Source: Gammaproteobacteria bacterium (GTDB taxonomy: Bacteria > Pseudomonadota > Gammaproteobacteria > Steroidobacterales > Steroidobacteraceae). From it: a stretch of 50,908 nt of DNA. Made by a program: the position numbers and the translations under genes. The notes beneath the pieces were generated by a model that ran no database searches, was not told the origin of the DNA, and saw only the letters and a list, made by a program, of their open reading frames with translations. Each line of letters starts with the position of its first letter. The stretch's first letter is position 1. This document shows, one piece after another, positions 13,758-47,868 of this stretch. The stretch is from contig JAURLT010000033.1 of NCBI GenBank assembly GCA_030831085.1, positions 1 through 50,908 of the forward strand. Reading direction: 5' to 3'.

Positions 13758-13760
13758 GCC

Positions 13761-22373: not shown

Positions 22374-22388
22374 GTTTTTCTTCCTTGT

Positions 22389-24328: not shown

Positions 24329-24398
24329 CGGTCCCCCTCGGTTAAGTCAAATCGGGGGTGAGTTTAGGCGGACTTTTGGCTCAAAACCAAGAAATCGG

Positions 24399-25721: not shown

Positions 25722-25751
25722 GTCTTGCCCCCCGTGTGCGGATCGTTTTTG

Positions 25752-26954: not shown

Positions 26955-28480
26955 GGGCAGGTCTCCGTTGAGGTCGGTGCGCCAGCCTCCAGCAGGCGCA
27001 GCTCCAGGTGCTGGATCAGCGGGGGCTGGATGGGAGCCAAAGTAATCTCGAACAGCACCGGCCCGTGCTCGCAGTTCATGGTCCACTGACCGCGCAGCGC
27101 GTTGGGCAGCCGGGTATAGCCATCGCTGCGGATGCACCGCCCGGCGGCTGCCGAAGTTTCCAGGAATTGTTGCCGTCGCTTGGCCAGCGAACGGTCGAGA
27201 AACAGGTTATTGGCCGCGATCCTCCGGGCCAGCCCATCGTCCCATTGCTCGAACAGGGACTCGACGTCGGCACGAGCACGGGTAAGCGCTGCCGAGGGCA
27301 CTGGCTGGCGCTGATGCAATACGCCGGCTGCGTCGAGTTGCGCGAAGACCTGGTCGAATACCGTGCTCCAACTCAGGTAGGTGCGGTTGCCCATGGCCAC
27401 CAACCCGATGCCGTACTCGGGCAGCCAGCGCATCTGCGAGCCAAAGCCGGGCAGTCCGCCGGTATGACCTGCAATCTGGCCGAAGCGGCAGTCCTGCCAG
27501 CTGCGCAGTCCATAGCCGTAACCGCCCGCAAACAGCACGGTCTGGCCCTCCGCATCGCGAGTGACTCGCGCCGATCGGCTGCGCCAGATCTGCTGCATTT
27601 CACGGAGCGAGGCGCGGGACAGGGGCAGGGTGTCCTCGCCGTCGCGGGCCGGGAATGCGGCAGTGAACATCCCGACATAACGGGCCAGGTCCTCCACCGA
27701 GGACAGCATGCCGCCCATCGCGCCAAAAGCCCCGTGCGCGGGCTGCGATTCAACGGAATGCACGCCGTCCTCGAACCGATAGCCTTCGCTACGTTGCGAG
27801 TCGGGCACCGACGCGGGCTCGAGGGTAGTGGAGCGCATGCCCAGCGGCTCCAGGATGTGCCGCTGCACGTAGTCCGCGTAACCCATACCGGACACGCGGC
27901 TGACCACACGCCCGAGCAGGGCGAAGCCCACGTTGGAATACTCGTACTCGGTGCCCGGTGCAGTGGAGAACGGCACTCCCTGGGTGAGCAACTCGGTAAA
28001 GGATTCCTCCGGCAGGTCCAGCTGACGGTCGCCCCAGGGATTGTCTTCCGGGAAGCCGCCGCTGTGGGTCAGCAGCTGGCGCAGGGTGATGCGAGGTGAA
28101 TCGCTGGTCGGATAAGGCAGATCGCGCAATTCAGGGAGAAACCTTTCCACGGGGTCGTCCAGCGACAGCTTGCCGGCATCCCTTAACTGAAGAATGGCCA
28201 CGGCGGTAAAGCTCTTGGTCATGGAAGCGATGCGAAAAACCGTGTCCGGCCCAACAGGGGTATCGGTGCCTAGCTGGCGAAGCCCCGTACTGCCAGCGTG
28301 GACCAGGCGGCCATCGACCACCAGGCCCCAGGCAGCCCCGGGCACGTTTTCACGGGCGGCGAACTCCGTGAACGCGGTGTCGAGAGCGTCCAGCACCGCG
28401 GCGGGGAGGTGGCTGGCCCGGCTCGGCGGGCCACTAGCCAACGTCAGGCACAGGAGCAATGAACAAGTTAAGCGCTTCAT
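26951..28480 (-). CDS. Beta-lactamase-family serine hydrolase with a C-terminal extension domain
   Basis: Signal peptide MKRLTCSLLLCLTLASG. The SxxK motif is RIASMTKSFTAVAIL. 509 aa. Confidence 0.65.
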   Translation of the reverse strand: MKRLTCSLLLCLTLASGPPSRASHLPAAVLDALDTAFTEFAARENVPGAAWGLVVDGRLVHAGSTGLRQLGTDTPVGPDTVFRIASMTKSFTAVAILQLRDAGKLSLDDPVERFLPELRDLPYPTSDSPRITLRQLLTHSGGFPEDNPWGDRQLDLPEESFTELLTQGVPFSTAPGTEYEYSNVGFALLGRVVSRVSGMGYADYVQRHILEPLGMRSTTLEPASVPDSQRSEGYRFEDGVHSVESQPAHGAFGAMGGMLSSVEDLARYVGMFTAAFPARDGEDTLPLSRASLREMQQIWRSRSARVTRDAEGQTVLFAGGYGYGLRSWQDCRFGQIAGHTGGLPGFGSQMRWLPEYGIGLVAMGNRTYLSWSTVFDQVFAQLDAAGVLHQRQPVPSAALTRARADVESLFEQWDDGLARRIAANNLFLDRSLAKRRQQFLETSAAAGRCIRSDGYTRLPNALRGQWTMNCEHGPVLFEITLAPIQPPLIQHLELRLLEAGAPTSTETCP

Positions 28481-28656
28481 GTCGCCAAGTTAACCGATAG
28501 TCTGCGACGCCCCAAGCCCACGTTTGTCTCATTTAAACAACGCTATAGCGCGTGATTGCGCCAACCCGAAGGCGGGTGTTGCCCAAACAGCACAATGTGG
28601 TATTTTCATTATAACGACACAATGACTGAGCGCTAAACAACAACAGCAACACACAG

Positions 28657-28663
28657 AAAGGAG
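28657..28663 (+). promoter_or_regulatory. Shine-Dalgarno AAAGGAG about 11 nt upstream of the TonB-receptor ATG
   Basis: Read directly: acacagaaaggagtacggatcaccATG. Confidence 0.45.
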
Positions 28664-28674
28664 TACGGATCACC

Positions 28675-31059
28675 ATGAAGAGCAAGCTATCGATCGGCGG
28701 TTCTCTATGGCTGGGAGCATCGCTGGCCCTGCCCATTCAGGCACAAGAGGTGGCTAAGGCGTCCGCTGAGACTGCCACGCAACTTCAGGAAATCACCGTC
28801 ACCGCCACCAAGCGGGACGCGCTGGCGCACAAGATTCCGTATAACGTCACCGCCATCGGTGAATCCGAGCTACGTGCCGAGAACATCACCGACATCAAGT
28901 CGCTGATCGCCAACAGCGTCGGTATCGATGCGCCGCAGAACGGTGCCCGCTTTACTGATTCGGTCACGGTACGTGGCTTGAATATCTCGCGTGCAGATGC
29001 CAACAACCTCGAATGGTTCACCCGCAGCACGCTGGCCTACTACCTCGACGATGCGCCGCTGCCGTTCATGGCCTACCGCATCAAGGACGTCGCGCGTGTG
29101 GAGACCCTGCTCGGTCCGCAGGGCACCCTCTTCGGCGGAGGCGCCCTGGGGGGCGCCGTGCGCTACATCACCAACCAGCCCAAGATCGGCGAAATGGAAG
29201 CGCGTATTTCCACCAGCTTCTACCAGACCAAAAACGGCGGGCTGTCCAACGATACCGATGCGATGGTAAACCTGCCGCTGGGCGACACGGTGGCGTTGCG
29301 CATCTCGCTCGCTCGCCTTGATGAGAAGGGGTACACCGACCGCTATGCCGCCACGCCCGATTACCTGAGCGACTCGCCGTGGACGCCGCTGCCCAATGGT
29401 TCCAAGGACGTCTACAAGGATGATGACTGGAACGAGGTGGAAGGCGGCCGGATCGCCCTGCGCTGGCAGGCGTCGGAAAACTTCGCCCTCACCCTGTCAC
29501 ACATCGACCAGTCCCAGACCGCGCATGGCACGCGCGGAGCGCAACTGGTGGTCGGGTTCGGTGACCCGGGGCGCTACACGGCACCTCAGGCGTTCAATTC
29601 CCAAACGGTGCTGTCGCGTTACCCCGAATACCTGGATCGCGACTTCCGCATGTCGACCCTGAGCTTCGAGTGGGACCTTGGCTTCGCCAACCTGACTTCA
29701 TCGACCTCGGACTACGAGGACATTCGCGAAGGCGAGGCCGACTACCTGGCCTATGGGTCCTTCTTCTACGGCACCCTGGGTTTCTCGCCCTTTGAACTCG
29801 GCAACCCGAACTGGGCCGGTGAGACCTCCTACATCACCTTCGATAACCGCAACAGCGGACTGCTGCACGAGACGCGGCTGGTCTCTGCTGGCGACGGTCC
29901 GCTCAGCTGGGTGGTGGGCGTCTACTATGCCGACCAGGATCGTCAGCAGCAGTTCTCGGAGTGGATGCCGGGGCTTGAGCCCTACAAGTTCGGCGGTGGC
30001 CGCACCGATGAGGGCTACAACGAAAACCAGGCTGGTGACTTCACCGAGAGCGCACTGTTCGGCGAGTTGTCCTACCAGGTTACTCCTAAGCTGACCCTGA
30101 CCGGTGGCGCCCGGCTGTTCTCCTACGAGGACAAGTCGCTGAACCGTGTCGAAGACTACGCCTTCGACCTGGTCACCGGCACCAAGGTGGACAAGGAGAA
30201 GAAGAGCGGCGAGTCCTACTTCAAGTTCAACGCCTCCTACGAAATCACCGACGACTTCCTGGGCTACGCCACCTTCTCCCAGGGCTTCCGCCGTGGCGGT
30301 GCCAACAACTGGCGCGAGGGGCCCGAGTGCTTCACCTGTGGCGGGGCGATCTCGGACGAGTTGCGCAACTACCAGCCGGATACGACCGATAACTACGAAC
30401 TGGGCCTGAAGGGCTTCCTGCTCGACCGGCGCCTGTACCTGCAGGCCAGCCTGTTCGCCATCGACTGGAACGATCCCCAGACCTACTTCTCGCAGGACGT
30501 GAACTTCTTCCCGGTCAACGGCACCACCAACGGTCCGGACGCCCGGTCGGAAGGCTACGAGCTACAGGGTAACTTCCTGCTCGGTGCGGGGTTCCAGTTC
30601 TCGTTTGCCACCAACCGCACCGAAGCGGAGTGGGACGAGACCAAGACCCTCTGCCTGTACGCCAATGGCACCTCCTGCCGGACCTACAACAAGGGCGGCA
30701 AGCTGGGCGGTACGGCCAAGGACAAGTACACGCTGGGCCTGCGCTGGCGGGGTTCCACCAGTGGTGGTCTCGACCTGAACGCCTCAGCGCGCATGCGTTA
30801 CCAGGGCAAGAAGCAGTCGGATCGTGGTGACAACCCGGACTCGGTCATTTTCGCCTATCCTAGCTACTCCACGCTAAACCTCAATTTCGGAGCGGCGACG
30901 GATAAATGGGACCTGAACGTCTGGATCAACAACGCTACCGACGAGGACAAGGTGGTTTCCTTCCAGGGAACCTCCTTGATCGGCAACATCACCGGCCTGC
31001 GGGCGATCTACCTGCAGCCGCGCACCATCGGGACGACCTTCAGCTACTACTTCCGCTGA
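28675..31059 (+). CDS. TonB-dependent outer-membrane receptor
   Basis: Signal peptide, then a plug domain (ITVTATKRDALAHKIPYNVTAIG, NLEWFTRSTLAYYLDDAPLPFMAY), then a long beta-barrel. 794 aa. The C-terminus is unusual: ...FSYYFR. Confidence 0.8.
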   Translation: MKSKLSIGGSLWLGASLALPIQAQEVAKASAETATQLQEITVTATKRDALAHKIPYNVTAIGESELRAENITDIKSLIANSVGIDAPQNGARFTDSVTVRGLNISRADANNLEWFTRSTLAYYLDDAPLPFMAYRIKDVARVETLLGPQGTLFGGGALGGAVRYITNQPKIGEMEARISTSFYQTKNGGLSNDTDAMVNLPLGDTVALRISLARLDEKGYTDRYAATPDYLSDSPWTPLPNGSKDVYKDDDWNEVEGGRIALRWQASENFALTLSHIDQSQTAHGTRGAQLVVGFGDPGRYTAPQAFNSQTVLSRYPEYLDRDFRMSTLSFEWDLGFANLTSSTSDYEDIREGEADYLAYGSFFYGTLGFSPFELGNPNWAGETSYITFDNRNSGLLHETRLVSAGDGPLSWVVGVYYADQDRQQQFSEWMPGLEPYKFGGGRTDEGYNENQAGDFTESALFGELSYQVTPKLTLTGGARLFSYEDKSLNRVEDYAFDLVTGTKVDKEKKSGESYFKFNASYEITDDFLGYATFSQGFRRGGANNWREGPECFTCGGAISDELRNYQPDTTDNYELGLKGFLLDRRLYLQASLFAIDWNDPQTYFSQDVNFFPVNGTTNGPDARSEGYELQGNFLLGAGFQFSFATNRTEAEWDETKTLCLYANGTSCRTYNKGGKLGGTAKDKYTLGLRWRGSTSGGLDLNASARMRYQGKKQSDRGDNPDSVIFAYPSYSTLNLNFGAATDKWDLNVWINNATDEDKVVSFQGTSLIGNITGLRAIYLQPRTIGTTFSYYFR

Positions 31060-31086
31060 TCGTCGCCGGCCGACAGTCCTTAGGCT

Positions 31087-32562
31087 GTGTTCGGCCCGCT
31101 TGATTGGGCGGTCACCGGCGCGTACTTCGCGCTGGTGACCGTCGTCGGTCATCTGTCGAGCCGCCGCGGCTCGACGCTGAACGAATACCTGCTCGCCTCG
31201 CGTTCGCTCCCCTGGCCGGCGGTGTCGGCCAGTATCGTCGCCACCACGGTCAGCGGCGTCACCTTCATCGGCGTCCCCGCCCTGGTGTTCGCCCAGGGGG
31301 GTGACTTCCGCTACCTGCAGTTCACCGTGGCCGGTGTCATTGCTAAGGCGGCGCTCGGTTATTGGATCCTGCCCCGAATGTACGCGGGAGAATTCAGCAG
31401 CCCCTACCAGTTCATCCGCGCCCAGCTCGGTCCCCGCCTGGGGGGCGCCTCGGCCCTGCTGTTTTTTGTGGGCGCCGTGCTCGGCCAGGGCGTACGGGTG
31501 TTCGCGGTGGCGCTGGTGCTGGAACTGCTCACCGGGCTCGATATGGAGCTCTGCGTGCTGGTGATCGTGGTGTTTTCCACCCTGCACACCTGGATGGGAG
31601 GCATCCGCGCCGTGGTCTGGACCGATGCCATCCAGTTTGTGGTGCTGGTGGCCGGCGGTCTCCTCGCGATCGCCTTCGTCGCCCAGGGTGGGGCAGGGGG
31701 CTTCGGTGCGGTGCTGGAGGCTGGTTCAGAGGCGGGCAAGCTGCGCACCTTCGACTTCACCGCCGACCCACGCGTGCAGTTCACCTTCTGGGCCGGCGTA
31801 TTTGCCATGCCTTTCCAGAACCTGGCTGCCTACGGCTCCGATCAGATCAACATCCAGCGCATGCTGTGCTGCCGTAACCTGCGTGATGCCCGCGTCGCCC
31901 TGTACGTCAGCAACTTCGGGGAACTGGTGGTGGTGCTGTTTCTGTGCGTCGGACTCTCCCTGTGGTGGTTCTATGGTCACCATCCCCTGGACGGGTCCTT
32001 CGCAGCCCTGGTCGCCGAGCGTGCGGACCGGATCTTTCCTGCTTTCATCCTCACCGAGCTGCCAGCAGGGGTGAAGGGCCTGATGGTGGCGGGCGTATTC
32101 GCCGCGGCGATGTCGAGTCTCGATTCCGTGCTTGCGGCCCTTTCCCAGGTAACGCTCACAATGTTCCACAAGGGCCACCTGACCGGTGAGCTGACCGACG
32201 CCCGTGCAGTAACGCTGTCGCGCATTTTCGTGGCAGTGTGGGGCGTGATACTCGGCGCATTTGCCCTGCTGGTGTCCGGATCTGGCGAGGCGTTGGTCCC
32301 CCTGGCCTTTGCCATGACCGCCTATACCTATGGGCCGATGCTGGGACTCCTGCTGCTGGCGCTGTTCGTACCGGTGAAGCGGATCGGCAGCGCCACGCTG
32401 GGGGTGGTGGTGTCCATGGTCGGCGTCCTGCTGGTCCATAACGCGAAGAATTTCGGCTTTACGGATGGCACCGACCTGGTGGCCTTCCCCTGGCTCTTCC
32501 CGCTGGGCGTGCTGCTCTGCCTGGGGACGGCACTGCTGCCTTGGGGGCGGCGGGCTACGTGA
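31087..32562 (+). CDS. Sodium:solute symporter (SSS) family transporter
   Basis: GTG start. 491 aa. The N-terminal block (GHLSSRRGSTLNEYLLASRSLPWPAVSASIVATTVSGVTFIGVP) and the overall topology fit the SSS family. Confidence 0.65.
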   Translation: MFGPLDWAVTGAYFALVTVVGHLSSRRGSTLNEYLLASRSLPWPAVSASIVATTVSGVTFIGVPALVFAQGGDFRYLQFTVAGVIAKAALGYWILPRMYAGEFSSPYQFIRAQLGPRLGGASALLFFVGAVLGQGVRVFAVALVLELLTGLDMELCVLVIVVFSTLHTWMGGIRAVVWTDAIQFVVLVAGGLLAIAFVAQGGAGGFGAVLEAGSEAGKLRTFDFTADPRVQFTFWAGVFAMPFQNLAAYGSDQINIQRMLCCRNLRDARVALYVSNFGELVVVLFLCVGLSLWWFYGHHPLDGSFAALVAERADRIFPAFILTELPAGVKGLMVAGVFAAAMSSLDSVLAALSQVTLTMFHKGHLTGELTDARAVTLSRIFVAVWGVILGAFALLVSGSGEALVPLAFAMTAYTYGPMLGLLLLALFVPVKRIGSATLGVVVSMVGVLLVHNAKNFGFTDGTDLVAFPWLFPLGVLLCLGTALLPWGRRAT

Positions 32563-33710
32563 TTCGCTATCTGTGCCCGGACGCCGTCCTGCTCGAAGGT
32601 CGCCTTCAAGCCGGTCATGCCGTGGCCCTCACCGGTGCCATCATCGAGTCCGTCCTGCCGCTCGAAGCAGTGCCTGCGGAAGCTGAGCGCGAGGTCCTGT
32701 CGGGACTGCTCGCCCCGGGCTTCATCGACCTGCAGGTGAACGGCGGTGGAGACCTCCTGTTTAACGACCAGCCGGACCTGGATGGTCTGCGTCGCATTGC
32801 TGCCGCCCATGCCGCGCTGGGCACGACGGGCTTCCTGCCCACGGTGATCACGGATTCGCCAGCGGTGCTCGAGTCTGCGCTGAACGCCGTAGAGGCCGCG
32901 GCTGCGCAACGGATGCCGGGTGTGCTCGGCTTGCACGTCGAGGGCCCCTTTATCGAGCCGGCCAGGGCGGGCATACACGCGACTGGGCATATTCGTGCGC
33001 TCGATGACTCCATGCTTGAGCGGCTCCTTGCGTTCAGGGGTGGCGGGTTGCTGGTGACGCTCGCACCCGAGTGCGTTCCACCCGGCGTAATCCGTCGCCT
33101 GGTCGACGCTGGAGTGGTGGTGGCTGCCGGGCACACCAACGCCAGCTATGAGCAAATCAGGTCCGCGATGGACGAGGGGCTTTCGGGCTTCACGCACTTG
33201 TTCAACGCCATGGCGCAGCTGACGGCCCGCCAGCCGGGCGTCGTGGGTGCAGCGCTCGATGCAAGCGATTGCTGGGCCTCGGTGATCGTCGACGGGCACC
33301 ACGTTCATCCCGCAGCGCTCAGGATCGCCCTGACCTGTCTGGGTGATGGGCGGATGGTGCTGGTGTCCGATGCGATGCCGCCGGTCGGCGGTCGCAATTC
33401 ACGCTTCCGCTTACAGGGACGGGAGATCACCGTCGAGGACGGCCGCTGCGTCTCGGCGGAGGGCACGCTGGCCGGGGCAGCCATCGCGCTCGCCGATGCC
33501 GTGCGTCGCGCGCGTGACGAGATGCGTGTCCCGCTGGAGGCGGCGATCAGCATGGCGACCCGGGCCCCTGCTCGTGCCCTGGGCGTCGAAAGAGGCGAGA
33601 TCGAGGCAGGCCAACCCGCGGATCTAGTGCTGCTGGATGAGACCGGCGCGGTGCAGGGCACCTGGGTGGGCGGTCAGGTGGTCGAGCCCCCCACCTGGAG
33701 CACGACCTGA
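32559..33710 (+). CDS. nagA: N-acetylglucosamine-6-phosphate deacetylase
   Basis: The track starts at a TTG at 32541. The GTG at 32559 gives a GTGA overlap with the SSS stop and a VIRYL... start. GFIDLQVNGGGD matches the NagA GFIDxQxNG metal-site motif. About 383 aa. Confidence 0.75.
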   Translation: MIRYLCPDAVLLEGRLQAGHAVALTGAIIESVLPLEAVPAEAEREVLSGLLAPGFIDLQVNGGGDLLFNDQPDLDGLRRIAAAHAALGTTGFLPTVITDSPAVLESALNAVEAAAAQRMPGVLGLHVEGPFIEPARAGIHATGHIRALDDSMLERLLAFRGGGLLVTLAPECVPPGVIRRLVDAGVVVAAGHTNASYEQIRSAMDEGLSGFTHLFNAMAQLTARQPGVVGAALDASDCWASVIVDGHHVHPAALRIALTCLGDGRMVLVSDAMPPVGGRNSRFRLQGREITVEDGRCVSAEGTLAGAAIALADAVRRARDEMRVPLEAAISMATRAPARALGVERGEIEAGQPADLVLLDETGAVQGTWVGGQVVEPPTWSTT

Positions 33711-34579
33711 CCCGGTGGCAGCCCGCGGGTGCGGGCAAGGTGGATAGCGCCAGACAAGGGATCTCCCAGGGGTTCGCGGAGGCGCAGCCGTACGCTGACG
33801 GCCAGCCAGTCGTGAATACGTTTGGAGAGCCCGCCCATCAGGCAGCAGTGTGGCACGCCGCGATCGAACAGCATGCCGATCAACTGATCGATACGATGGG
33901 CGCATTCCTGGACGATCGGCTCTGCCACCGCGTCGCCACGCTCCGCAAAGTCCATCACCAGCGGCGCAAAGGAGGCGTAGTCCCTTGCCGTGGCCGTATC
34001 GGTCCAGGTGATCACCTCGCCCGCCGATCCGGAAAAGTGGGCGAGGATGGCCTCGGTCATGGGCGAATGATCGAGCCTTCCGTCGCGGGCCCACAGCGAG
34101 CGGCGGATGGCTTGCATGCCGAGATCGGCGCCGCTGCCCTCGTCAGAGACCGGAAATCCGTAACCACCTACCGAGACGATTTCCTCGCCAATGCGACCGA
34201 AGCCAATGCTGCCGGTACCCACCACGACGATGCCGCCGTCGGCCCCATCATGGGCGCCGATGCAGGCGATCGAGGCGTCGCTGGCGATGGCGAGGGTCTC
34301 GAAGGGGAAGGGGTGGGCGCGAAGCCCCGGGAGCACGCCGCGCCGGTTCAGTCCGGCAATGCCAAGGCCCGCGCGAATACCGGCGCTCGCCGCGCCCTCG
34401 ACTCCTGCGGCTGTTGCCGCAGCACGCCAGGCCAGGTTGATTTCATGCAGGCAGCGATCCAGCCCGAGCCGCGTATTGGCGGGGCCCGCTTCGCCCTCAC
34501 CCATCACGGTTCCGTCCTCGTCAACCAGCCGGGCACGGGTATGGGTGCCTCCCGCATCAATGCCGAGATACAGGCTCAT
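33674..34579 (-). CDS. BadF/BadG/BcrA/BcrD-type ATPase; N-acetylglucosamine/N-acetylmuramate kinase (MurK/NAGK-like)
   Basis: The ATG at 34579 gives MSLYLGIDAGGTHTRARLVDEDG (ASKHA phosphate-1 motif). The track's longer N-terminus would overlap murQ. About 301 aa. Confidence 0.65.
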   Translation of the reverse strand: MSLYLGIDAGGTHTRARLVDEDGTVMGEGEAGPANTRLGLDRCLHEINLAWRAAATAAGVEGAASAGIRAGLGIAGLNRRGVLPGLRAHPFPFETLAIASDASIACIGAHDGADGGIVVVGTGSIGFGRIGEEIVSVGGYGFPVSDEGSGADLGMQAIRRSLWARDGRLDHSPMTEAILAHFSGSAGEVITWTDTATARDYASFAPLVMDFAERGDAVAEPIVQECAHRIDQLIGMLFDRGVPHCCLMGGLSKRIHDWLAVSVRLRLREPLGDPLSGAIHLARTRGLPPGQVVLQVGGSTT

Positions 34580-34607
34580 GGCTACAATTCTAGCCCACGG
34601 AGGGCAG

Positions 34608-35501
34608 ATGGCGACTGAGGGCATCGACGAACGCTATGCGGGCCTGGACAACTGGCCGGCCGAAAGGTTGGTCAGCGCGTTATTGGAAGCCAAGATCGCG
34701 GCGCTGGATACGGTCCGGTCTCAAGCCGTGCTGGTGGGGAGGGCCATCGAAGCCGCGGCAGCCCGTCTGGAGCGGGAGGGACGCCTGATCTATGCGGGTG
34801 CCGGCACCTCCGGGCGGGTGGCGGTGCAGGACGGGGTCGAATTGCAGCCGACCTTTGGCTGGCCGCGCGAGCGGCTGGCCTATCTGATGGCAGGCGGCAC
34901 GGCGGCGCTGGAGCGCAGCGTCGAGGGTGCGGAGGACGACGCCAGGGCCGGACGTAAGGCGTTGCTGGCGCTCGCGCCCGGGCCGGCCGACGTGGTGCTG
35001 GCCGTGGCGGCCAGCGGGCGCACTCCGTACACGGTAGCGGTGGCCGAGACCGCTCGCGCCGCGGGCGCGCTGGTCATCGGCATTGCCTGCAACCCGGACA
35101 CCCCGCTGCTGGCCGCGGCCGACCATCCCCTGTGTGTGGGAGGTGCTGCAGAGATCGTGGCAGGTTCCACCCGACTGAGTTCAGGCACTGCGCAAAAGGC
35201 GGCGCTGAACGCGATCTCTACCGGCGTGATGGTCCGCCTGGGACGGGTCTACGGCAATCTCATGGTCGGCATGCAGGTGACCAACGACAAGCTGCGGCGG
35301 CGGGCAGTCGCCATGGTGGCGCGGCTGGCCCGCGTCGATGAGCGGCAGGCGGCCACGCAGCTTGGGATAGCCTCTGACGACATTCGGCTGGCCGTTCTCC
35401 TGGCGCTGGGTGTTCCGGGCGATCGTGCGGCGTCGGCGCTGGCTGACGCCGGGGGGCGGTTGGGTGAGGCGGCCCGCTTGCTTGGCCTCGACGCGCCATG
35501 A
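34608..35501 (+). CDS. murQ: N-acetylmuramic acid 6-phosphate etherase (SIS domain)
   Basis: The in-frame ATG at 34608 gives MATEGIDERYAGLDNWPAERLVSAL; the track's 34191 start runs antisense through the kinase. GAGTSGRVAVQDGVEL and TPYTVAVAE fit MurQ. 297 aa. Confidence 0.75.
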   Translation: MATEGIDERYAGLDNWPAERLVSALLEAKIAALDTVRSQAVLVGRAIEAAAARLEREGRLIYAGAGTSGRVAVQDGVELQPTFGWPRERLAYLMAGGTAALERSVEGAEDDARAGRKALLALAPGPADVVLAVAASGRTPYTVAVAETARAAGALVIGIACNPDTPLLAAADHPLCVGGAAEIVAGSTRLSSGTAQKAALNAISTGVMVRLGRVYGNLMVGMQVTNDKLRRRAVAMVARLARVDERQAATQLGIASDDIRLAVLLALGVPGDRAASALADAGGRLGEAARLLGLDAP

Positions 35502-36682
35502 GGATGCAGCTACTGGCAATCGGCACCGGCGTACTCCTGTCGAGTCTTGCACTGGCCGAGACGCCTGTCGCGCCCTTCGGCGAACTCGATGCAACGATCG
35601 AGCAGGCCATCGAGGCGGGGGCCGCGCCCGGCGCCGTGGTGCTGGTGGGGCAGGGAGAGCGGGTCCTGTATCGGCGCGCCTATGGCTGGAGGTCGCTGTC
35701 CGACCCGCGCGAGCCGATGACCGAGGACACGATCTTCGACTTTGCCTCCTTGACCAAGGTGCTGGCCACCGCGACGGCCTTGATGGTCCTGGTCGACGAA
35801 GGCGGGCTCTCGCTGGAAGATCCCGTCTCGAAATGGCTGCCGGATTGGGCAGGCTCCGACAAGGCAGCCCTGACCGTGCGGCAGTTGGCGACCCACGTGG
35901 CAGGGTTTGCACCCGACGTGGACCTCGAGGCCCCATGGGTCGGGCGCGAGACGGCGATGCGGCTGGCGCGTGAGACGCCGCTGGCGGCGCCCCCGGGTGA
36001 GCGCTTCATCTATAGCGACATCGGCTATTTCGTGCTGGCCGCAGTCATCGAGCAGGCGGCTGGCGTACCGTTCGAGACCTTCGTGACGGAACGAGTGCTC
36101 CGCCCATTGGGCATGAACGATACCGCCTTCAGCCCGGCACAGGGCCTGCGTTCGCGCGTTGCGCCCACCGAGCCGGGGGTGGAGCGCGGTGTGGTGCATG
36201 ATCCCACCGCGCGGCGCATGGGCGGGGTGGCTGGTCACGCAGGCCTGTTCTCGACCGCCGAGGACCTCTCGCGCTTTGCACGGATGATCCTGGCCGGGGG
36301 CAGTCTGGAGGGTGTTCGGGTGCTGTCCCCGGAAGCGGTCGGCGTGATGACCTCGACCCAGACACCGTCGGGCATGCAACAACGCCGCGGCATTGGCTGG
36401 GACATCGACACGGCTTTTTCCACCCCGCGAGGCGAGCGTTTTCCCATTGGCTCGATCGGGCATACCGGGTTCACTGGCACCTCGATGTGGCTGGATCCTG
36501 ATAGCGGTGCCTACCTGCTGCTGCTGACCTCGCGATTGCATCCTGATGGCAAGGGCGACGTCCGTTCGTTGCGCAAGCAGGCGGCCACCCTGGTGGCCCG
36601 GGCGGTCCTCGACGAAGGCGCCGGTCAGGCTTCCGGGGGTGGGGGCGGATCGGCTAAGGTGGCGCCCGGGAACACACCATGA
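35498..36682 (+). CDS. Beta-lactamase-family serine hydrolase (third paralogous fold in the window), secreted
   Basis: Signal peptide MRMQLLAIGTGVLLSSLALA. The SxxK motif is FDFASLTKVLAT. ATGA overlaps on both sides (murQ upstream, DUF1611 downstream). Confidence 0.65.
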   Translation: MRMQLLAIGTGVLLSSLALAETPVAPFGELDATIEQAIEAGAAPGAVVLVGQGERVLYRRAYGWRSLSDPREPMTEDTIFDFASLTKVLATATALMVLVDEGGLSLEDPVSKWLPDWAGSDKAALTVRQLATHVAGFAPDVDLEAPWVGRETAMRLARETPLAAPPGERFIYSDIGYFVLAAVIEQAAGVPFETFVTERVLRPLGMNDTAFSPAQGLRSRVAPTEPGVERGVVHDPTARRMGGVAGHAGLFSTAEDLSRFARMILAGGSLEGVRVLSPEAVGVMTSTQTPSGMQQRRGIGWDIDTAFSTPRGERFPIGSIGHTGFTGTSMWLDPDSGAYLLLLTSRLHPDGKGDVRSLRKQAATLVARAVLDEGAGQASGGGGGSAKVAPGNTP

Positions 36683-37680
36683 AAATAGAACAGCCTTACC
36701 TGCTTTTTCTGGGCGATGCCCCCGATATCCTTGCTGCCAAGACCGCCATCGGCGTGTGGTACTGGCGCCCCGAGCATTGCGTGGGTCAGCTGCGCCTGCC
36801 GGGCTGCGTGCCGAGGCTCCCGGCCCCCGAACTCGACATCGCTGCCGCGGTGGCGGCCGGTGCGCGGACGCTGCTGATCGGGGTGGCGAACCGGGGTGGC
36901 AGGATCGGTGAGGCCTGGGTGCCGACCCTGGTGGAGGCCCTCGATCGGGGTCTCGACCTTGCCAGCGGCCTGCACGTACGCCTGTCCAGCGTGCCCGAAG
37001 TGGCCGAGGCGGCGAAGCGCAATGGCCGTCGCCTGATCGAGGTGCGCGAACCGGGCAGGGAGTTCCCGGTAGCCAATGCGAAGCCGCGCAGCGGCCACCG
37101 CCTGTTGGCCGTCGGCACCGACTGTTCGGTCGGCAAGATGTACACCACGCTCGCGCTGGAGCGGGAGATGCGCGCGCGGGGCATGAAGGCGAACTTTCGC
37201 GCCACTGGTCAGACCGGCATCATGATTTCCGGTGAGGGTGTGCCGGTGGACGCGGTGGTCTCCGACTTCATTGCGGGCTCCATCGAGGAGCTGTGCCCGG
37301 CCAACGACGCGGATCACTGGGACCTGGTGGAAGGCCAGGGTTCGCTCTTCCATCCCTCCTTCTCTGGGGTCAGCCTGGGCCTGCTGCATGGTGCGGCGCC
37401 GGACGCCCTTGTCATGTGTCACGAGCCTACGCGCACACACCTGCGCGGATTGCCCCACTGGCCGGTGCCGAACCTCGCCGAGTGTCTCGAGCTTCACCTG
37501 CGCTGCGCGCGCCTGATGAACCCCGAGGTCCGTTTCGTCGGCATGGCCGTGAACACGTCCGCGCTGGCCGAACCCGAAGCGCAGTCGTTGTTGGCCCGCC
37601 TGCAGGAGACGCATGGCCTGCCTTGTGTCGACCCGGTGCGCACGGGCGTGGAGCCCATCGTCGACCTGCTGCAGTCCTGA
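36679..37680 (+). CDS. DUF1611-family protein (commonly paired with L-Ala-D/L-Glu epimerase)
   Basis: MKIEQPYLLFLGDAPDILAAKTAIGVWYWRPE is the DUF1611 N-terminal pattern. 333 aa. A one-nt overlap (TGATG) couples it to the epimerase. Confidence 0.55.
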   Translation: MKIEQPYLLFLGDAPDILAAKTAIGVWYWRPEHCVGQLRLPGCVPRLPAPELDIAAAVAAGARTLLIGVANRGGRIGEAWVPTLVEALDRGLDLASGLHVRLSSVPEVAEAAKRNGRRLIEVREPGREFPVANAKPRSGHRLLAVGTDCSVGKMYTTLALEREMRARGMKANFRATGQTGIMISGEGVPVDAVVSDFIAGSIEELCPANDADHWDLVEGQGSLFHPSFSGVSLGLLHGAAPDALVMCHEPTRTHLRGLPHWPVPNLAECLELHLRCARLMNPEVRFVGMAVNTSALAEPEAQSLLARLQETHGLPCVDPVRTGVEPIVDLLQS

Positions 37681-38699
37681 TGCGCGAGGTGCAGCTGCGC
37701 CGCGAGCGCTGGCCGCTCAGGGAGCCGTTTCGGATCTCGCGTGGCGTGAAGACCGCCGCCGACGTCGTGGTGGTCGAAGTGATCGAACAGGGTGTCACGG
37801 GCCGCGGTGAGGGCGTGCCCTACGCACGCTATGGCGAGTCGGTGGAGGGTGTACTGGCCCAGCTCGAGTCTGCGGCCGGTGCGCTGCGCGAGGGTATGAC
37901 CCGCACCGAACTGCAAGCCTTCATGAAGGCAGGTGCCGCGCGTAACGCGCTCGACTGCGCGCTGTGGGACCTGGAGGCGCAGTTGGCCGGCCAGACGGTC
38001 TGGCAACTCGCCGGCCTGCCAGAGCCGGCTGCTCTGGTGACCGCTCAGACCATTAGCCTGGATACCCCCGAAGCGATGGGGGCGGCCGCAACACGCCATG
38101 CTCATCGACCGCTCCTGAAGCTCAAGCTCGACGCCCACCTGGTGGCCGAGCGCGTGGCCTCGGTGCGTGCCGCGGCGCCGGCCGCACGGCTCATCGTGGA
38201 TGCCAACGAGGGCTGGACGCCCGAGGTGCTGGAGGAGGCGCTGCCGGCGCTGGAGTCGCTGGGCATCGAGTTGCTGGAGCAGCCCTTGAAGGCCGACCAG
38301 GATGGCCCGCTGGACGGCATCGGACATGCCCTGCCCATCGCAGCCGACGAGTCCTGCCACACGCGTGCCGACCTGGAGGCACTCAGTCGGCGCTACGATT
38401 TCGTCAACGTGAAGCTGGACAAGTCTGGCGGGCTGACCGAGGCGCTCGCCATGGTGGGCGAGGCGCGTCGTCTGGGCCTCGGCGTATTCGTAGGGTGCAT
38501 GATCTGCACGTCGCTCTCGATCCGCCCGGCCCTCCTGGTCGCAGCGCAGGCCGACTACGTCGACCTGGACGGCCCGCTATGGCTCACGAACGACCGCGAG
38601 GGCGGAGTTCGCCTCGGCCAGGATGGCAGGCTGGAGCCAGGCGACGCCGCACTGTGGGGCGGGCTCAGCCCGCGTCTGGCGCTCCAAACACCGACTTGA
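37680..38699 (+). CDS. L-Ala-D/L-Glu dipeptide epimerase (enolase superfamily, YcjG/AeeP-like)
   Basis: The in-frame ATG at 37680 gives MREVQLRRERWPLREPFRISRGVKTAADVVVVEV. KLKLD, DANEGW, and the DES...NVKLDKSGGLTEA blocks match MR/MLE-type enolase-superfamily metal and base residues. 339 aa. Confidence 0.7.
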   Translation: MREVQLRRERWPLREPFRISRGVKTAADVVVVEVIEQGVTGRGEGVPYARYGESVEGVLAQLESAAGALREGMTRTELQAFMKAGAARNALDCALWDLEAQLAGQTVWQLAGLPEPAALVTAQTISLDTPEAMGAAATRHAHRPLLKLKLDAHLVAERVASVRAAAPAARLIVDANEGWTPEVLEEALPALESLGIELLEQPLKADQDGPLDGIGHALPIAADESCHTRADLEALSRRYDFVNVKLDKSGGLTEALAMVGEARRLGLGVFVGCMICTSLSIRPALLVAAQADYVDLDGPLWLTNDREGGVRLGQDGRLEPGDAALWGGLSPRLALQTPT

Positions 38700-40101
38700 T
38701 CTCGACAAACTCCTCGAAACCGAAGGCGCCCCACTCACGGCCGATGCCCGATTGCTTGAAGCCGCCGAAGGCGGCGCGGGTATCCAGCCTGGCCCCATTC
38801 AGGTGGACGTTGCCGGCCCTGAGACGTGCTCCGATGCGCGCGGCTTCCGCGGAATCGGCGCCGTACACGTAGGCCGATAGGCCGTAGGGCGTGTCGTTGG
38901 CGATCCGCACCGCTTCCTCCACGTCGTCGTAGGGCAGCATGCACAGCACGGGGCCGAAGATCTCTTCGCGCGCAATGGTCATGTCGTTGGTCACGTCGCT
39001 GAACAGGGTCGGGCGAGAGTAAAAGCCCCTGGTGAGCCCCTCCGGCCTACCGGTCCCGCCCGCCACCAGCCGCGCACCTTCCGAGATGCCCTGCTGGATA
39101 AGCGACTGGACCCGCTCCCACTGCTTGCCGTTGGCCTGCGGACCGAGCGTCGTGGAGGCTTCGAGCGGGTCACCCACCACCAGCTTCGCCATCACCTGCA
39201 CGGCAATGGCCTCGGCCTCGGCCAGCTGAGCGCGGGGCACGAGCATGCGCGAGGGGGCGTTGCAGCTCTGGCCCGTGTTGTTCATCAGCGATCGCACACC
39301 ATGGGTGACGGCCTTCTCCAGCGGTGCCCCGGGCAGGATCAGGTTGGGCGACTTGCCGCCGAGTTCCAGGGAGATTTTCTTGACGGTGTCCGCTGCCGCC
39401 TTCGCCACCAGGATGCCGGCGCGGGTGGAACCGGTGAAGGACATCATCTCGAGGCCCGGGTGGGCGGCCATGGCCGCGCCCACCGAGGGGCCATCGCCAT
39501 ACACCAGGTTGAAGACGCCGGCAGGCACGCCGGCTTCGTGCAGGATCTCGGCGATGATCTGGGCCGAGAACGGCGCCAGTTCGCTGGGCTTCAGGACCAT
39601 GGTGCAGCCGGTGGCGAGCGCAGGCGCCACCTTGCAGGCGATCTGGTTGGCCGGCCAGTTCCAGGGGGTGATCAGGCCGCAGGCGCCGACCGGCTCACGC
39701 ACGATGCGGGTGCTGCCGAGCGGCTTGTCGAATTCGTAGCTTGCCAGCACGCCCATGGCAGTGGCGAGATGGCCGAGGCCGGAGGGCGCCTGCTGGGGCT
39801 TGGCCACGGTCTCCAGCGGCGCACCCATCTCCTCACAGATGGCCAGCGCCAGGTCATCCATGCGCTGCTTGTAGACTTCGATGACGCGCCCGAACAGCGC
39901 CAGGCGTTCCTCGCGGGTGCTGCGTGACCAGCCCTCGAAGGCCTCGCGGGCGGCCGTCACGGCGGCCTCGACCTCCGCGGGTCCACCCATGGCGACCCGG
40001 CCGGCGGCCTGCTCGGTCGCCGGGTTGATCACCTCGTTGAACTGATCGCCGGAGGGGGCGACCCAGCGGCCACCGATGTAGAAGCTGTCGAGTTCGCGCA
40101 T
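38665..40101 (-). CDS. NAD(P)-dependent aldehyde dehydrogenase
   Basis: 478 aa. FTGSTRAG, ELGGKSP and the catalytic-Cys region (GQSCNAPSRMLV) match ALDH signatures. Confidence 0.8.
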   Translation of the reverse strand: MRELDSFYIGGRWVAPSGDQFNEVINPATEQAAGRVAMGGPAEVEAAVTAAREAFEGWSRSTREERLALFGRVIEVYKQRMDDLALAICEEMGAPLETVAKPQQAPSGLGHLATAMGVLASYEFDKPLGSTRIVREPVGACGLITPWNWPANQIACKVAPALATGCTMVLKPSELAPFSAQIIAEILHEAGVPAGVFNLVYGDGPSVGAAMAAHPGLEMMSFTGSTRAGILVAKAAADTVKKISLELGGKSPNLILPGAPLEKAVTHGVRSLMNNTGQSCNAPSRMLVPRAQLAEAEAIAVQVMAKLVVGDPLEASTTLGPQANGKQWERVQSLIQQGISEGARLVAGGTGRPEGLTRGFYSRPTLFSDVTNDMTIAREEIFGPVLCMLPYDDVEEAVRIANDTPYGLSAYVYGADSAEAARIGARLRAGNVHLNGARLDTRAAFGGFKQSGIGREWGAFGFEEFVEIKSVFGAPDAG

Positions 40102-40180
40102 GCCGCCCAGTCCTCATGCCTGCCAGACCAGCTCACAGTCTAGCGACCGTCACGCCGGCCTGCTGCGCTAACATGGCCGC

Positions 40181-41980
40181 ATGAGCGCGACGGTGTTTCA
40201 GCAGGCGGTGGCGGCGTTCCAGGCTGGCGACATGGCTGCGGCGAAGCGGCAGGTGGACCGGGTGCTGGCCGCCCAGCCGCGCCAGCCGGATGCCCTGCAC
40301 CTCGCGGCGCTGATTAGTCGCCAGTTGGGTCGCCAGCTCGAGGCGCTGACGCAGTTCGAGGCGAGCCTGAAGGCAAGCCCGCACCAGCCGGTCGTACTCT
40401 CGAACCTGGGCAACCTGCTACGTGACCTCGGCCGCCATGATGAGGCGGAGCAGCGTTATGGACGAGCCGTCGAACTGATGCCCCAGTTCGCCGATGCCTG
40501 GTACCAACGCGGGTTGCTCGCCATGGAGCGGCACCGGTCGGGGGATGCCGTTCTGCACCTGACGAAGGCGCGCGAGCTGGATCCACAACCCCGGGTACTC
40601 GCCGCGCTGGCGAGCGTGCAACTGGAGGGAGGCAAGCCCGCCGATGCGCTGCTCACTGCCCGCGACTTCGGGCGTATCGCCCCCATGGATGCCCGTGCCG
40701 TCGCGCTCGAGGCCAGGGCGCTCGCCAGGCTGGGAGACGAGACGGCTGCTCAAGGGCTGTTGCAGTCGGGACTCGGCAAGGTGGACGATCCAGCCAGCCT
40801 GCATCATGAACTCGGCCTGCTGGCCCTGGAGCGGGGTGATGCCCGGGAAGCGATGGACTGTTTCCGGGCGGCCATTCGGGCCAGGCCGGAGTTCATCGAT
40901 GCGCATCGGGCGCTCAATCGCTTGCAGTGGGAGCGTGGCGATGCGACGTTCATGGAGTCCTACCGGCAGGCGCTCGAACAGACGCCTGCCTGCGCGCCCC
41001 TGCATCACAACCTGGCCGCCGCCTGCATCGCCAGCGGCGATGAAGACGGCGCAACAACGGTGCTTGAACGGGCTCTGGACACTGCAGGCTCCGACCCGTT
41101 CCTGCTGCACGGCCTTGCCGTTCAGTATCTGAAGGGCGGCGACCTGGGCCGCGCGCGCGAGGGCTTCGATCGCGCGCTGGCCTCGAGGCCGGACGAGGTG
41201 CGCTTTCTGATCGACAGCGCCAACCTGTGTCTCCGCGAACAGCAACCCGATGCTGCCCAGCAGGCCATCAGCCGGGCACTGGCCGTCTCGCCGCATCACC
41301 AGGAGGCCTGGGCTTACCAGGGGGTGCTCTGGCGGCTCGCTGGCGACGCCCGTCACGACTGGTTGAACGATTACGATGGCCTGCTGCGCGACTACGCGCT
41401 GCCCGTGCCGGCAGGTTTTGCCTCACTGCCCGAGTTCATGCAGGCCTTGGCCTCCGAGCTGGCGGGGCGGCATACCGCGGTGCGCCAGCCACTGGACCAG
41501 AGCGTGCGTCATGGCACCCAGACCACCGGCGTACTGCTGGACGATCCCCATCCGCTGCTGGTGGCCCTGCGCAGCGCCATCGATACCTGCCTGCAGGACT
41601 ACCTGGGCAGGCTGCAGCGGGAGTCCGAACACCCGCTCAGTTCGCGGTTGGGTCGCGGCGCGCGCTTTGCCGGCAGCTGGTCGGTGAGTCTCGGTGGAGA
41701 GGGCTATCACGCCAACCACGTCCATCCGCTAGGCTGGCTGTCCTGCTGTACCTACGTGATGCTGCCGGAGGCGATCGGCGCAGGGGGCGAGGATCGGCGA
41801 GGCTGGATCAAGTTCGGCGAAACCGCGCTTGGTCTCGGTGACCGGGAGCAGGTGGCGCGTGCCATCCAGCCGCGCGTGGGGCACTGCGTGTTCTTCCCGG
41901 CCTATTTCTGGCACGGCACCTTTCCTTTTCAGGAAACCGGCCGCAGGTTGACCGTGCCCTGCGATTTCGAGCCGGGCTGA
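40181..41980 (+). CDS. TPR-repeat protein with a C-terminal 2OG-Fe(II) oxygenase-like domain
   Basis: 599 aa. The first two-thirds is TPR repeats. The C-terminal HANHVHPLGWLSCCTYVMLPE...GHCVFFPAYFWHGTFPF fits an HxD/H...H cupin oxygenase of the PF13759 type. Confidence 0.6.
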   Translation: MSATVFQQAVAAFQAGDMAAAKRQVDRVLAAQPRQPDALHLAALISRQLGRQLEALTQFEASLKASPHQPVVLSNLGNLLRDLGRHDEAEQRYGRAVELMPQFADAWYQRGLLAMERHRSGDAVLHLTKARELDPQPRVLAALASVQLEGGKPADALLTARDFGRIAPMDARAVALEARALARLGDETAAQGLLQSGLGKVDDPASLHHELGLLALERGDAREAMDCFRAAIRARPEFIDAHRALNRLQWERGDATFMESYRQALEQTPACAPLHHNLAAACIASGDEDGATTVLERALDTAGSDPFLLHGLAVQYLKGGDLGRAREGFDRALASRPDEVRFLIDSANLCLREQQPDAAQQAISRALAVSPHHQEAWAYQGVLWRLAGDARHDWLNDYDGLLRDYALPVPAGFASLPEFMQALASELAGRHTAVRQPLDQSVRHGTQTTGVLLDDPHPLLVALRSAIDTCLQDYLGRLQRESEHPLSSRLGRGARFAGSWSVSLGGEGYHANHVHPLGWLSCCTYVMLPEAIGAGGEDRRGWIKFGETALGLGDREQVARAIQPRVGHCVFFPAYFWHGTFPFQETGRRLTVPCDFEPG

Positions 41981-41985
41981 GTGCC

Positions 41986-43503: not shown

Positions 43504-43538
43504 GGTGCAAGGATACCGTCCGAGGGTTTTTCAGGCAC

Positions 43539-43567
43539 AAAAAAAGAGGCGGGCCGAAGCCCGCCTC
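43539..43567 (-). terminator. Rho-independent terminator downstream of the TonB-receptor gene
   Basis: On the minus strand: GAGGCGGGC-ttcg-GCCCGCCTC followed by TTTTTTT (plus strand aaaaaaaGAGGCGGGCcgaaGCCCGCCTC). Confidence 0.55.
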
Positions 43568-43594
43568 CAGGTGTCACGAGAGGACGCCTTGCGC

Positions 43595-46393: not shown

Positions 46394-46617
46394 AGGTCAT
46401 ACCTCTTCCATTTGTGAACTAACAACGAATTCGGTGCAGCGTTCCGCTTGACCCCTCGCCGCACCGGACCAATTTGGATCCAAAGGCCAAACTGCACGAG
46501 ACGTTAGTCGAATTCCTTCGGCTAATCAATACATTGTGGCCAAAATACAACAGTCGGAAGGGGCTTTTGTGACTCGTATCATCGCGCCCGGGGCCGGGAA
46601 ACGTTATGTCGAAAACC

Positions 46618-47118: not shown

Positions 47119-47125
47119 CCGCGGT

Positions 47126-47404: not shown

Positions 47405-47529
47405 GAGCGTCCCCTATTGAGCCCTTGGCCCCGCAGTCGTCCCAAACCGTAGGTTACCATCCCGGCCGATGGTAATTAAGCGAATGCCGTCAAAAGGGGC
47501 TAAAAAACGGTCCCGCCCCGGGCTTGACG

Positions 47530-47829: not shown

Positions 47830-47868
47830 GCTGGTACGGCTCACGGCCAAACGGGTTAACCTACGGCG

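Follow-up and report, generated by a model that had tools for sequence, protein, structure and literature searches.

We describe a locus in a 50,908-nt stretch of contig JAURLT010000033.1 (the window, to which all coordinates refer) that probably serves peptidoglycan-fragment utilisation in a Steroidobacteraceae-like gammaproteobacterium, and that is built from two divergent units and a tightly coupled four-gene operon. The host, a soil or freshwater gammaproteobacterium, most likely uses it to scavenge the wall fragments of other bacteria and to break down both N-acetylmuramic acid (MurNAc) and D-glutamate (D-Glu). The cytoplasmic half, leading from MurNAc-6-phosphate (MurNAc-6-P) to glucosamine 6-phosphate (GlcN-6-P) and from D-Glu to N-acetyl-L-glutamate (N-acetyl-L-Glu), can be assigned by homology with high confidence, and the envelope half (a receptor, three S12 hydrolases and two permeases) is assigned by gene context only. 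More tentatively, the locus may point to two undescribed transport steps for environmental peptidoglycan. One would be a family of TonB-dependent receptors for peptide-bearing fragments that travels with S12 D-peptidases, and the other an SSS subfamily importing MurNAc/anhydro-MurNAc or D-Glu/D-Glu peptide in place of MurP, MurT or AmpG; in this lineage both would be wired to one operon using MurQ and DgcN/DgcA.

An earlier reading of the same DNA, made without database searches (the sequence-only reading), had described eight genes at 28675-38699 as a muropeptide scavenging locus with complete catabolism of the sugar and peptide moieties, and this interpretation is partly supported. Open reading frames (ORFs), strands and junctions were read off the sequence directly. 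They bear out the earlier account of all eight genes with their orientation, of the overlaps (GTGA, ATGA, TGATG) and of the divergent spacer of 28 bp, with the correction that the coordinates of the kinase gene and murQ are each one base lower than had been implied. The locus also reaches past these eight genes to a divergent operon of BlaU1, BlaU2 and an NCS1 permease. Its features are as follows (lengths in amino acids, aa; E values of the Pfam matches in brackets).

24399-25721, minus strand: NCS1-family permease, 440 aa, third gene of the divergent upstream operon (Transp_cyt_pur 3e-11)
25752-26954, minus strand: BlaU2, S12 (beta-lactamase-fold) serine peptidase, 400 aa, predicted lipoprotein (LLTGC) (PF00144 1e-45)
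26951-28480, minus strand: BlaU1, S12 serine peptidase, 509 aa, with signal peptide and C-terminal extension (PF00144 2e-72)
28481-28674: intergenic region of 194 bp from which BlaU1 and the receptor gene diverge, presumed shared control region
28675-31059, plus strand: TonB-dependent outer-membrane receptor, 794 aa (Plug 5e-10, barrel 2e-31)
31087-32562, plus strand: SSS-family secondary transporter, 491 aa, GTG start (SSF 1.5e-26)
32559-33710, plus strand: NagA, N-acetylglucosamine (GlcNAc)-6-phosphate deacetylase, 383 aa, GTG start (TIGR00221)
33674-34579, minus strand: BadF/BcrAD-type N-acetyl-amino-sugar kinase, 301 aa (PF01869 4e-27)
34580-34607: spacer of 28 bp separating the start codons of the kinase gene and murQ, which diverge (from the sequence)
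34608-35501, plus strand: MurQ, MurNAc-6-P etherase, 297 aa (NF003915)
35498-36682, plus strand: Hyd, predicted periplasmic S12/beta-lactamase-fold serine hydrolase of AmiE/PBP4B type, 394 aa (PF00144 1e-75)
36679-37680, plus strand: DgcN, predicted D-glutamate N-acetyltransferase (DUF1611), 333 aa (NF041892)
37680-38699, plus strand: DgcA, predicted N-acetyl-D-glutamate racemase (enolase superfamily), 339 aa (NF042940)

The SSS gene begins 27 nt past the stop codon of the receptor gene, and its own stop overlaps the nagA start as GTGA at 32559-32562. The nagA and kinase genes are convergent and share 37 nt at their 3' ends (33674-33710), which leaves no space for a terminator between them. 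On the other side of the 28-bp spacer, murQ and Hyd, and likewise Hyd and the DUF1611 gene, are joined by ATGA overlaps, and the DUF1611 and enolase-superfamily genes by TGATG. In the upstream operon, BlaU1 and BlaU2 overlap by ATGA and the permease gene starts 30 nt past the BlaU2 stop. The same starts were found in independent gene calls on metagenome contigs of 94–99% identity (383, 301, 297 and 394 aa for NagA, the kinase, MurQ and Hyd), and the Pfam and NCBIfam matches of the locus span 1e-10 to 1e-155; the eight-gene arrangement is no chance pattern.

The calls of NagA, MurQ and a BadF-type sugar kinase are solid, and a cytoplasmic route for MurNAc is present by homology, as the sequence-only reading had proposed. 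NagA scores 284.5 bits with the TIGR00221 equivalog (cutoff 225.65), and stays below the cutoff of PRK11170 (305 bits; cutoff 483). MurQ passes the subfamily model NF003915 (312.3 bits; cutoff 168) but not the stricter TIGR00274 equivalog (227 bits; cutoff 302). Its identity to the E. coli enzyme is 41%, and in the BLASTP alignment E78 and E109 correspond to the catalytic residues Glu83 and Glu114 of that protein. The kinase has the BcrAD_BadFG/BadF ATPase fold, and its PDB matches are 1ZC6 (‘probable GlcNAc kinase’, 4e-37) and 8ZO3 (‘MurNAc/GlcNAc kinase’, 2e-15). Its sole NCBIfam match is the Shewanella GlcNAc kinase NagK_SO3507, at 245 bits against a cutoff of 370, and a comparison with Tannerella forsythia MurK gave no match at E ≤ 0.001. 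By sequence similarity the kinase resembles the NagK-type enzymes of proteobacteria more than it does characterised MurK, and the earlier label ‘MurK-like’ is a matter of pathway logic rather than homology: since MurQ requires MurNAc-6-P and no phosphotransferase system (PTS) is present, the kinase is the obvious source of this substrate.

The last two genes of the murQ operon had been taken for an L-Ala-D/L-Glu epimerase and a DUF1611 partner acting on the stem dipeptide, and they are better read as a D-glutamate catabolic pair, judging from the family models. The DUF1611 protein matches both DUF1611 domains (PF17396 and PF07755; DUF1611 at 5e-77), passes the DgcN equivalog NF041892 (517.6 bits; cutoff 480) over positions 1-326 of 326, and matches the solved structure PDB 7XRJ at 1e-126. 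The enolase-superfamily protein contains the N- and C-terminal MR_MLE domains and passes the DgcA equivalog NF042940 (463.2 bits; cutoff 400). Two papers (PMC11747546; PMC12363236) describe DgcN as a D-glutamate N-acetyltransferase and DgcA as an N-acetyl-D-glutamate racemase, which jointly convert D-Glu to N-acetyl-L-Glu; in the second, dgcN is named as the key gene for a pathway that racemises irreversibly (PMC12363236). DgcN is accordingly predicted, by homology, to acetylate free D-Glu and not the L-Ala-D-Glu dipeptide.

The enolase-superfamily enzyme could instead be a true L-Ala-D/L-Glu epimerase, with some other role for the DUF1611 protein. It is 51% identical to E. coli YcjG, passes the YcjG model NF011708 as well (368.6 bits; cutoff 343), and has 1JPD as its best PDB match, so the earlier claim is weakened and not overturned. 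However, we regard the epimerase as improbable here: the DgcA score is the higher one, the gene is translationally coupled to that of a DgcN equivalog, and E. coli has YcjG but no adjoining DUF1611 partner. The coupling to DgcN is why the DgcA reading is preferred, and the pairing is widely kept, with dgcA directly 3' of dgcN in 71 of 80 related genomes (species representatives with DgcN at 57–92% identity, the sample of our neighbourhood survey). This corrects a common annotation: an ‘L-Ala-D/L-Glu epimerase’ adjoining a DUF1611 gene should probably read DgcA beside DgcN.

Hyd, the serine hydrolase embedded in the operon, keeps the motifs of an active enzyme. It starts with a signal-like sequence (MRMQLLAIGTGVLLSSLALAETP). 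Its motifs S84LTK87 (SxxK), Y172-S-D and H322-T-G recur without change in E. coli YfeW (PBP4B) and throughout a set of 40 homologues; as the catalytic Ser/Lys, Tyr and HTG motifs are all intact, the refuting condition of the sequence-only reading (an inactive enzyme that lacks Tyr/Lys) fails. Its gene context is informative in two ways. Hyd occupies the operon place that PBP4B holds in E. coli and AmiE in B. subtilis: the E. coli murQ-murP-yfeW operon has a PF00144 enzyme inside it (PMC5061867), and the B. subtilis operon is described, in Table 1 of PMC10653849 and in PMC8054146, as murQ-murR-murP-amiE-nagZ-namZ, AmiE being a PF00144 exo-MurNAc-L-Ala amidase. PMC8054146 gives the order of action as NagZ, AmiE, NamZ, with AmiE between the other two. 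Moreover, at least 9 of the top 120 Hyd homologues (50–56% identity) are fused to the exo-muramidase NamZ (DUF1343). The sister-lineage locus L005 encodes an 847-aa Hyd::NamZ fusion, unfused homologues adjoin NamZ (L086), and a fused homologue in Acidobacteriia (L087) adjoins an SSF transporter and a MurQ-like SIS gene. Because of the murQ-operon position and the NamZ fusions and adjacency, Hyd is most likely a periplasmic MurNAc-L-Ala amidase like AmiE.

Some evidence points elsewhere. The AlphaFold2 model of Hyd (mean predicted local distance difference test, pLDDT, 86.5) has Caulobacter EstG as its top PDB fold match (5e-28, 29% identity), and the search returned only esterases (EstG and family VIII) and class C lactamases, which weighs against the amidase, with the proviso that no solved AmiE structure was there to be matched. 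The best NCBIfam match is PBP4B, an enzyme that PMC5061867 describes, citing its reference 19, as a DD-carboxypeptidase. Hyd could then be either a PBP4B-like DD- or LD-carboxypeptidase or an esterase, which might take O-acetyl groups off MurNAc, for instance, or attack periplasmic glucans as EstG does; we hold this to be possible but doubtful. Identity to PBP4B is 32%, and the score with its equivalog NF002968 (154.8 bits) is far below the cutoff of 385. NamZ needs peptide-free MurNAc ends, and fusion or adjacency to it fits an amidase that acts just before NamZ.

The combination of these genes is rare. Among the 80 genomes, linkage of murQ to dgcN-dgcA occurs once, and the full layout of receptor, SSS, nagA/kinase/murQ, Hyd and dgcN-dgcA is found only in L004, an uncultured gammaproteobacterium with DgcN at 92% identity; L005 has a looser version without murQ. 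The usual neighbours of DgcN are a class IV (D-amino-acid) aminotransferase (21 of 80), an FGase-family amidohydrolase (10 of 80), Ddl (10 of 80) and an amidase (9 of 80). Gene order including the upstream genes is kept in the close contigs L001-L003 and in the species-level relative L004, and the nearest named relatives of the window proteins come from Steroidobacteraceae metagenome-assembled genomes. For the receptor and the SSS transporter, about 35 contexts were compared in total, from few lineages.

Synteny backs the peptidoglycan theme of the sequence-only reading, for the SSS transporter as for Hyd. The score of the transporter with TIGR00813 is borderline (184.3 bits; cutoff 184), and that with PF00474 is 93.6 bits (cutoff 22.8). 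The nearest solved relatives are SMVT (3e-42), the sialic-acid symporter SiaT (2e-41), SMCT1 and NIS, well ahead of the SGLTs. By these similarities it belongs to the carboxylate/anion branch of its family, which would suit MurNAc or an acidic amino acid. Homologues of 50–65% identity stand in telling neighbourhoods. In L088, NamZ and HGSNAT_cat genes are divergent from a PhyH-SSS pair; L089 has a Hyd orthologue (52%) followed by SSS, RlpA and a PBP5-family (Peptidase_S11) carboxypeptidase gene; L090 has PhyH and then SSS; and L091 has SSS followed by an Amidase_2 gene with PG_binding_1. In L005 the order is LdcA, a TonB-dependent-receptor-like gene, Hyd::NamZ, PhyH, SSS (65%), a class-A-like lactamase and DgcN. 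A metagenome scan gave 26 further SSS loci (L096-L121; 63–68% identity), with PhyH upstream in 22, DgcN downstream in 14, Hyd::NamZ in 11–12 and LdcA in 8 of the 26. Judged by its neighbours, the SSS subfamily appears clearly tied to peptidoglycan processing, and the transporter is a candidate inner-membrane importer of MurNAc or another peptidoglycan-derived carboxylate. Given how steadily SSS is linked to DgcN, D-Glu or a D-Glu peptide must also be taken seriously as what it carries, in place of MurNAc.

An SSS protein beside murQ in L087 was considered as an orthologue and rejected, being 23% identical (a second SSS protein there is 32% identical), and it does not fix the substrate. The window lacks the PhyH-family (2-oxoglutarate/Fe(II) dioxygenase) gene that stands directly 5' of SSS in L005, L088 and L090. 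A class-A-like beta-lactamase family gene (PF13354) separates SSS from dgcN in L005 (9102-10004) and in 14 of the 26 metagenome loci; the same interval in the window holds nagA, the kinase gene, murQ and Hyd.

The receptor matches the plug (PF07715) and barrel (PF00593) families and shows a TonB-box-like EITVTAT behind its signal peptide. A role in siderophore, haem or B12 uptake was rejected, as all NCBIfam equivalogs score 20–60 bits against cutoffs of 300–900. Homologues are 93% identical within Steroidobacteraceae and 47–61% identical in Burkholderiales and Cellvibrionales. In Roseateles (L092), Simiduia and Pseudoduganella (L094), where identity is 48–58%, the receptor gene always adjoins a BlaU2 orthologue and Peptidase_C39_2 proteins, and BlaU2 is 35–40% identical to the PF00144 proteins there over about 360 aa. 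The Simiduia locus adds a GH3 (NagZ-like) gene and YkuD; that of Roseateles also has genes for an NCS1 permease, an aldehyde dehydrogenase, a DAO-type oxidase and an aminotransferase; and an arginase-family gene is adjacent in both Roseateles and Pseudoduganella. None of these three loci contains murQ, nagA or this SSS. Whether synteny keeps the receptor in the locus, a check put forward by the sequence-only reading, thus receives a divided answer: it is kept in the nearest species, and in other orders it is paired with the BlaU2 orthologue. Across orders, the conserved partner of the receptor, as far as gene neighbourhoods tell, is the upstream S12 peptidase and not SSS, nagA or murQ. Such a partnership argues for a peptide-bearing substrate, which could be something other than a muropeptide. 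A 2024 review on the substrates of TonB-dependent transporters does not mention muropeptides. In L001 and L002, Logan contigs of 97–99% identity from two samples, the receptor gene is about 83 nt shorter in the part equivalent to 29680-29753 and gene calling splits it into three ORFs (206, 138 and 382 aa), either a frameshifted allele or an assembly artefact.

All three PF00144 proteins of the locus (BlaU1, BlaU2 and Hyd) have signal or lipoprotein sequences and intact catalytic motifs. BlaU2 carries SISK, YTN and HGG, with the Streptomyces R61 DD-peptidase as best PDB match (1e-18). BlaU1 carries SMTK, YSN and HTG, its best PDB matches are Pab87 (9e-40) and then LACTB and alkaline D-peptidase, and it is found at the same position in L001 (99%) and L004 (77%). 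The permease reaches 173.7 bits with the NCBIfam cytosine permease model, below the cutoff of 326, and its position is likewise filled in L001.

The two divergent spacers were inspected for control signals. In the 194-bp region, which is 73% identical to that of L004 with conserved blocks, an AAGGAG ribosome-binding site precedes the receptor ATG and no consensus promoter was found; neither spacer contains inverted repeats. In the 28-bp spacer, -10-like hexamers of the two strands overlap (plus, TACAAT; minus, TAGAAT or TATGAT) by consensus matching only, with a minus-strand promoter-like match TCGCCA-16-TAGAAT, and the hexamers are conserved in L004 (7530-7558). Since only 7 nt separate the minus-strand hexamer from the ATG of the kinase gene, its transcript may lack a leader.

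Two other explanations of the whole locus have to be set against a common function in peptidoglycan-fragment use. The receptor, SSS, NagA and the kinase might form a unit for GlcNAc or chitooligosaccharides, comparable to the nag loci of Caulobacter, Xanthomonas and Shewanella, with murQ-Hyd-dgcN-dgcA as a mere neighbour. The GlcNAc-kinase matches of the kinase would suit such a unit, TonB-dependent uptake of GlcNAc and chitooligosaccharides beside nagA is established in Caulobacter (PMC13046382, PMC11658791), and the window has no MurNAc-specific transporter of known type. There is nevertheless little to recommend it, given that the SSS subfamily adjoins NamZ, AmiE-like or Amidase_2 enzymes and DgcN, never chitinases, and has nagA beside it only in this lineage; that receptor homologues travel with S12 and C39-like peptidases and not with chitinases or GH20 enzymes; that the 28-bp spacing of the kinase and murQ starts is kept in L004; and that nagB, NagR and chitinase are missing from the window. 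Alternatively, the locus could comprise two modules, of which the receptor, the upstream S12 peptidases and the NCS1 permease act on a D-amino-acid peptide or guanidino compound unrelated to peptidoglycan, and only the genes from SSS through dgcA on peptidoglycan products. The loci of Roseateles, Simiduia and Pseudoduganella speak for this division through the constant company of BlaU2 and Peptidase_C39_2 proteins, the arginase-family genes of two of them, the NCS1 permease, aldehyde dehydrogenase, DAO-type oxidase and aminotransferase of Roseateles, and the absence of murQ, nagA and SSS. The division is unlikely in our view: the receptor-SSS gap is 27 nt and free of a terminator, SSS overlaps nagA, L004 shows the same arrangement, the GH3 (NagZ-like) and YkuD genes of Simiduia point to peptidoglycan, and the sister lineage likewise has a TonB-type receptor, though a different one, within its Hyd::NamZ-SSS-DgcN locus (L005).

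Several results nonetheless weigh against a peptidoglycan-fragment locus, or against parts of it, beside the kinase comparisons and the Hyd fold search given above. The arginase-family genes in two of the three receptor loci (L092 and L094), and likewise the aldehyde dehydrogenase and aminotransferase genes of L092, hint at a substrate other than peptidoglycan. The 26 metagenome loci come from few lineages and are not independent, and none of them has murQ, nagA or the kinase near SSS, which could then transport D-Glu or a peptide. In the 51-kb window, Pfam and NCBIfam scans found no nagB and no glycosidase (NagZ, NamZ), and neither a known D-Glu-releasing peptidase (MpaA-, NlpC/P60- or PepD-type) nor an N-acetyl-L-Glu deacetylase was found there; the ‘complete catabolism’ claimed before was overstated. 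The same scans of the window's other ORFs detected no regulator (MurR, NagR, NagC, GntR, LysR). Consensus scans of 24000-40300 gave 1 promoter-like and 3 terminator-like sites, no excess over shuffled controls, and being at chance level they carry no information on co-regulation.

With peptidoglycan-fragment utilisation as the favoured explanation, the following course can be proposed. The TonB-dependent receptor would take peptide-bearing wall fragments over the outer membrane; in the periplasm, Hyd would release MurNAc from its stem peptide, as AmiE does in B. subtilis, and BlaU1 and BlaU2 would trim the D-amino-acid-containing peptide; and the SSS and NCS1 permeases may move MurNAc, D-Glu or small peptides over the inner membrane. 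In the cytoplasm, by homology, the N-acetyl-amino-sugar kinase would make the 6-phosphate, MurQ would strip the D-lactyl ether from MurNAc-6-P to give GlcNAc-6-phosphate (GlcNAc-6-P), and NagA would deacetylate this to GlcN-6-P. DgcN would acetylate free D-Glu with acetyl-CoA, and DgcA would racemise N-acetyl-D-Glu to N-acetyl-L-Glu. As translational coupling unites murQ and dgcN/dgcA within one operon, the wall sugar and the D-amino acid would be handled together. Glycosidase activity, D-Glu release, N-acetyl-L-Glu deacetylation and NagB would be supplied by genes elsewhere.

All components belong to known families, and what is new is the combination together with two candidate transport families for peptidoglycan products. 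Like the B. subtilis murQ-murR-murP-amiE-nagZ-namZ and E. coli murR/murQ-murP-yfeW operons, the locus joins MurQ, which converts MurNAc-6-P to GlcNAc-6-P, with a secreted PF00144 (S12) hydrolase and a MurNAc importer, here a candidate one. Unlike them, it is without the PTS transporter MurP, MurR, NagZ and NamZ, so that a separate ATP-dependent kinase must give the 6-phosphate, and it adds NagA, a TonB-dependent receptor and DgcN/DgcA. The peptidoglycan-scavenging cluster murT-murK-murQ of T. forsythia follows a similar scheme, in which MurNAc enters without a PTS, is phosphorylated by an ATP-dependent kinase of the BadF type and passes on to MurQ, but the transporter here is of the SSS family, the kinase is unmatched to MurK and no AmpG is in the locus; MurT is a separate Bacteroidetes family (PMC7670621). 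With the DgcN-DgcA pathway of marine Proteobacteria (EC 2.3.1.312, EC 5.1.1.25) the pair shares the passed equivalog cutoffs and the usual adjacent order, and differs in being the distal half of a murQ operon. The TonB-dependent GlcNAc loci of Caulobacter and Xanthomonas target chitin products and combine transport by a PTS or NagP with NagB and a regulator of the GntR or LacI type, whereas the partners here are MurQ, S12 peptidases and DgcN/DgcA. As in E. coli ycjG-mpaA, there is an enolase-superfamily enzyme (51% identical) linked to peptidoglycan peptide catabolism; MpaA, the murein tripeptide amidase, is missing here, and the coupling to DgcN implies N-acetyl-D-Glu as substrate.

The flanking genes were also recorded. 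The NCS1 permease gene is followed by that of an SPFH/Band-7 protein whose C-terminus has three zinc ribbons (23078-24328, minus strand), and at 20751-23102 on the same strand lie two ORFs of 540 and 237 aa with coding-like GC content at third codon positions (0.71 and 0.67) and no Pfam or NCBIfam match. A penicillin-amidase/PvdQ-like Ntn-hydrolase acylase of 694 aa (18670-20754) stands directly past an Mrp-type cation/proton antiporter operon (about 11387-18586). On the other side, an aldehyde dehydrogenase gene (38665-40101, minus strand) is convergent with dgcA with a 35-nt 3' overlap; it has no evident pathway role, and its product is 41% identical to the aldehyde dehydrogenase of the Roseateles receptor locus. 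Beyond it, at 40181-49890, a cluster of TPR-repeat proteins surrounds a second, larger TonB-dependent receptor (43595-46393, 932 aa); the TPR proteins carry fused sulfotransferase domains (41986-43503 and 47869-49890) or a fused 2OG-Fe(II) oxygenase domain (40181-41980).

In soils, lakes and the sea, peptidoglycan with its D-amino acids makes up a large reserve of organic carbon and nitrogen whose turnover is slow. The enzymes that handle MurNAc (MurQ) and D-Glu (DgcN/DgcA) in the cytoplasm are already known, and to our knowledge the passage of wall fragments over both Gram-negative membranes is known only in a few models (AmpG, MurP, MurT). The locus supplies concrete, testable candidates for both membrane steps, and it suggests that one lineage of gammaproteobacteria has the branches for the sugar and for D-glutamate organised as one unit.

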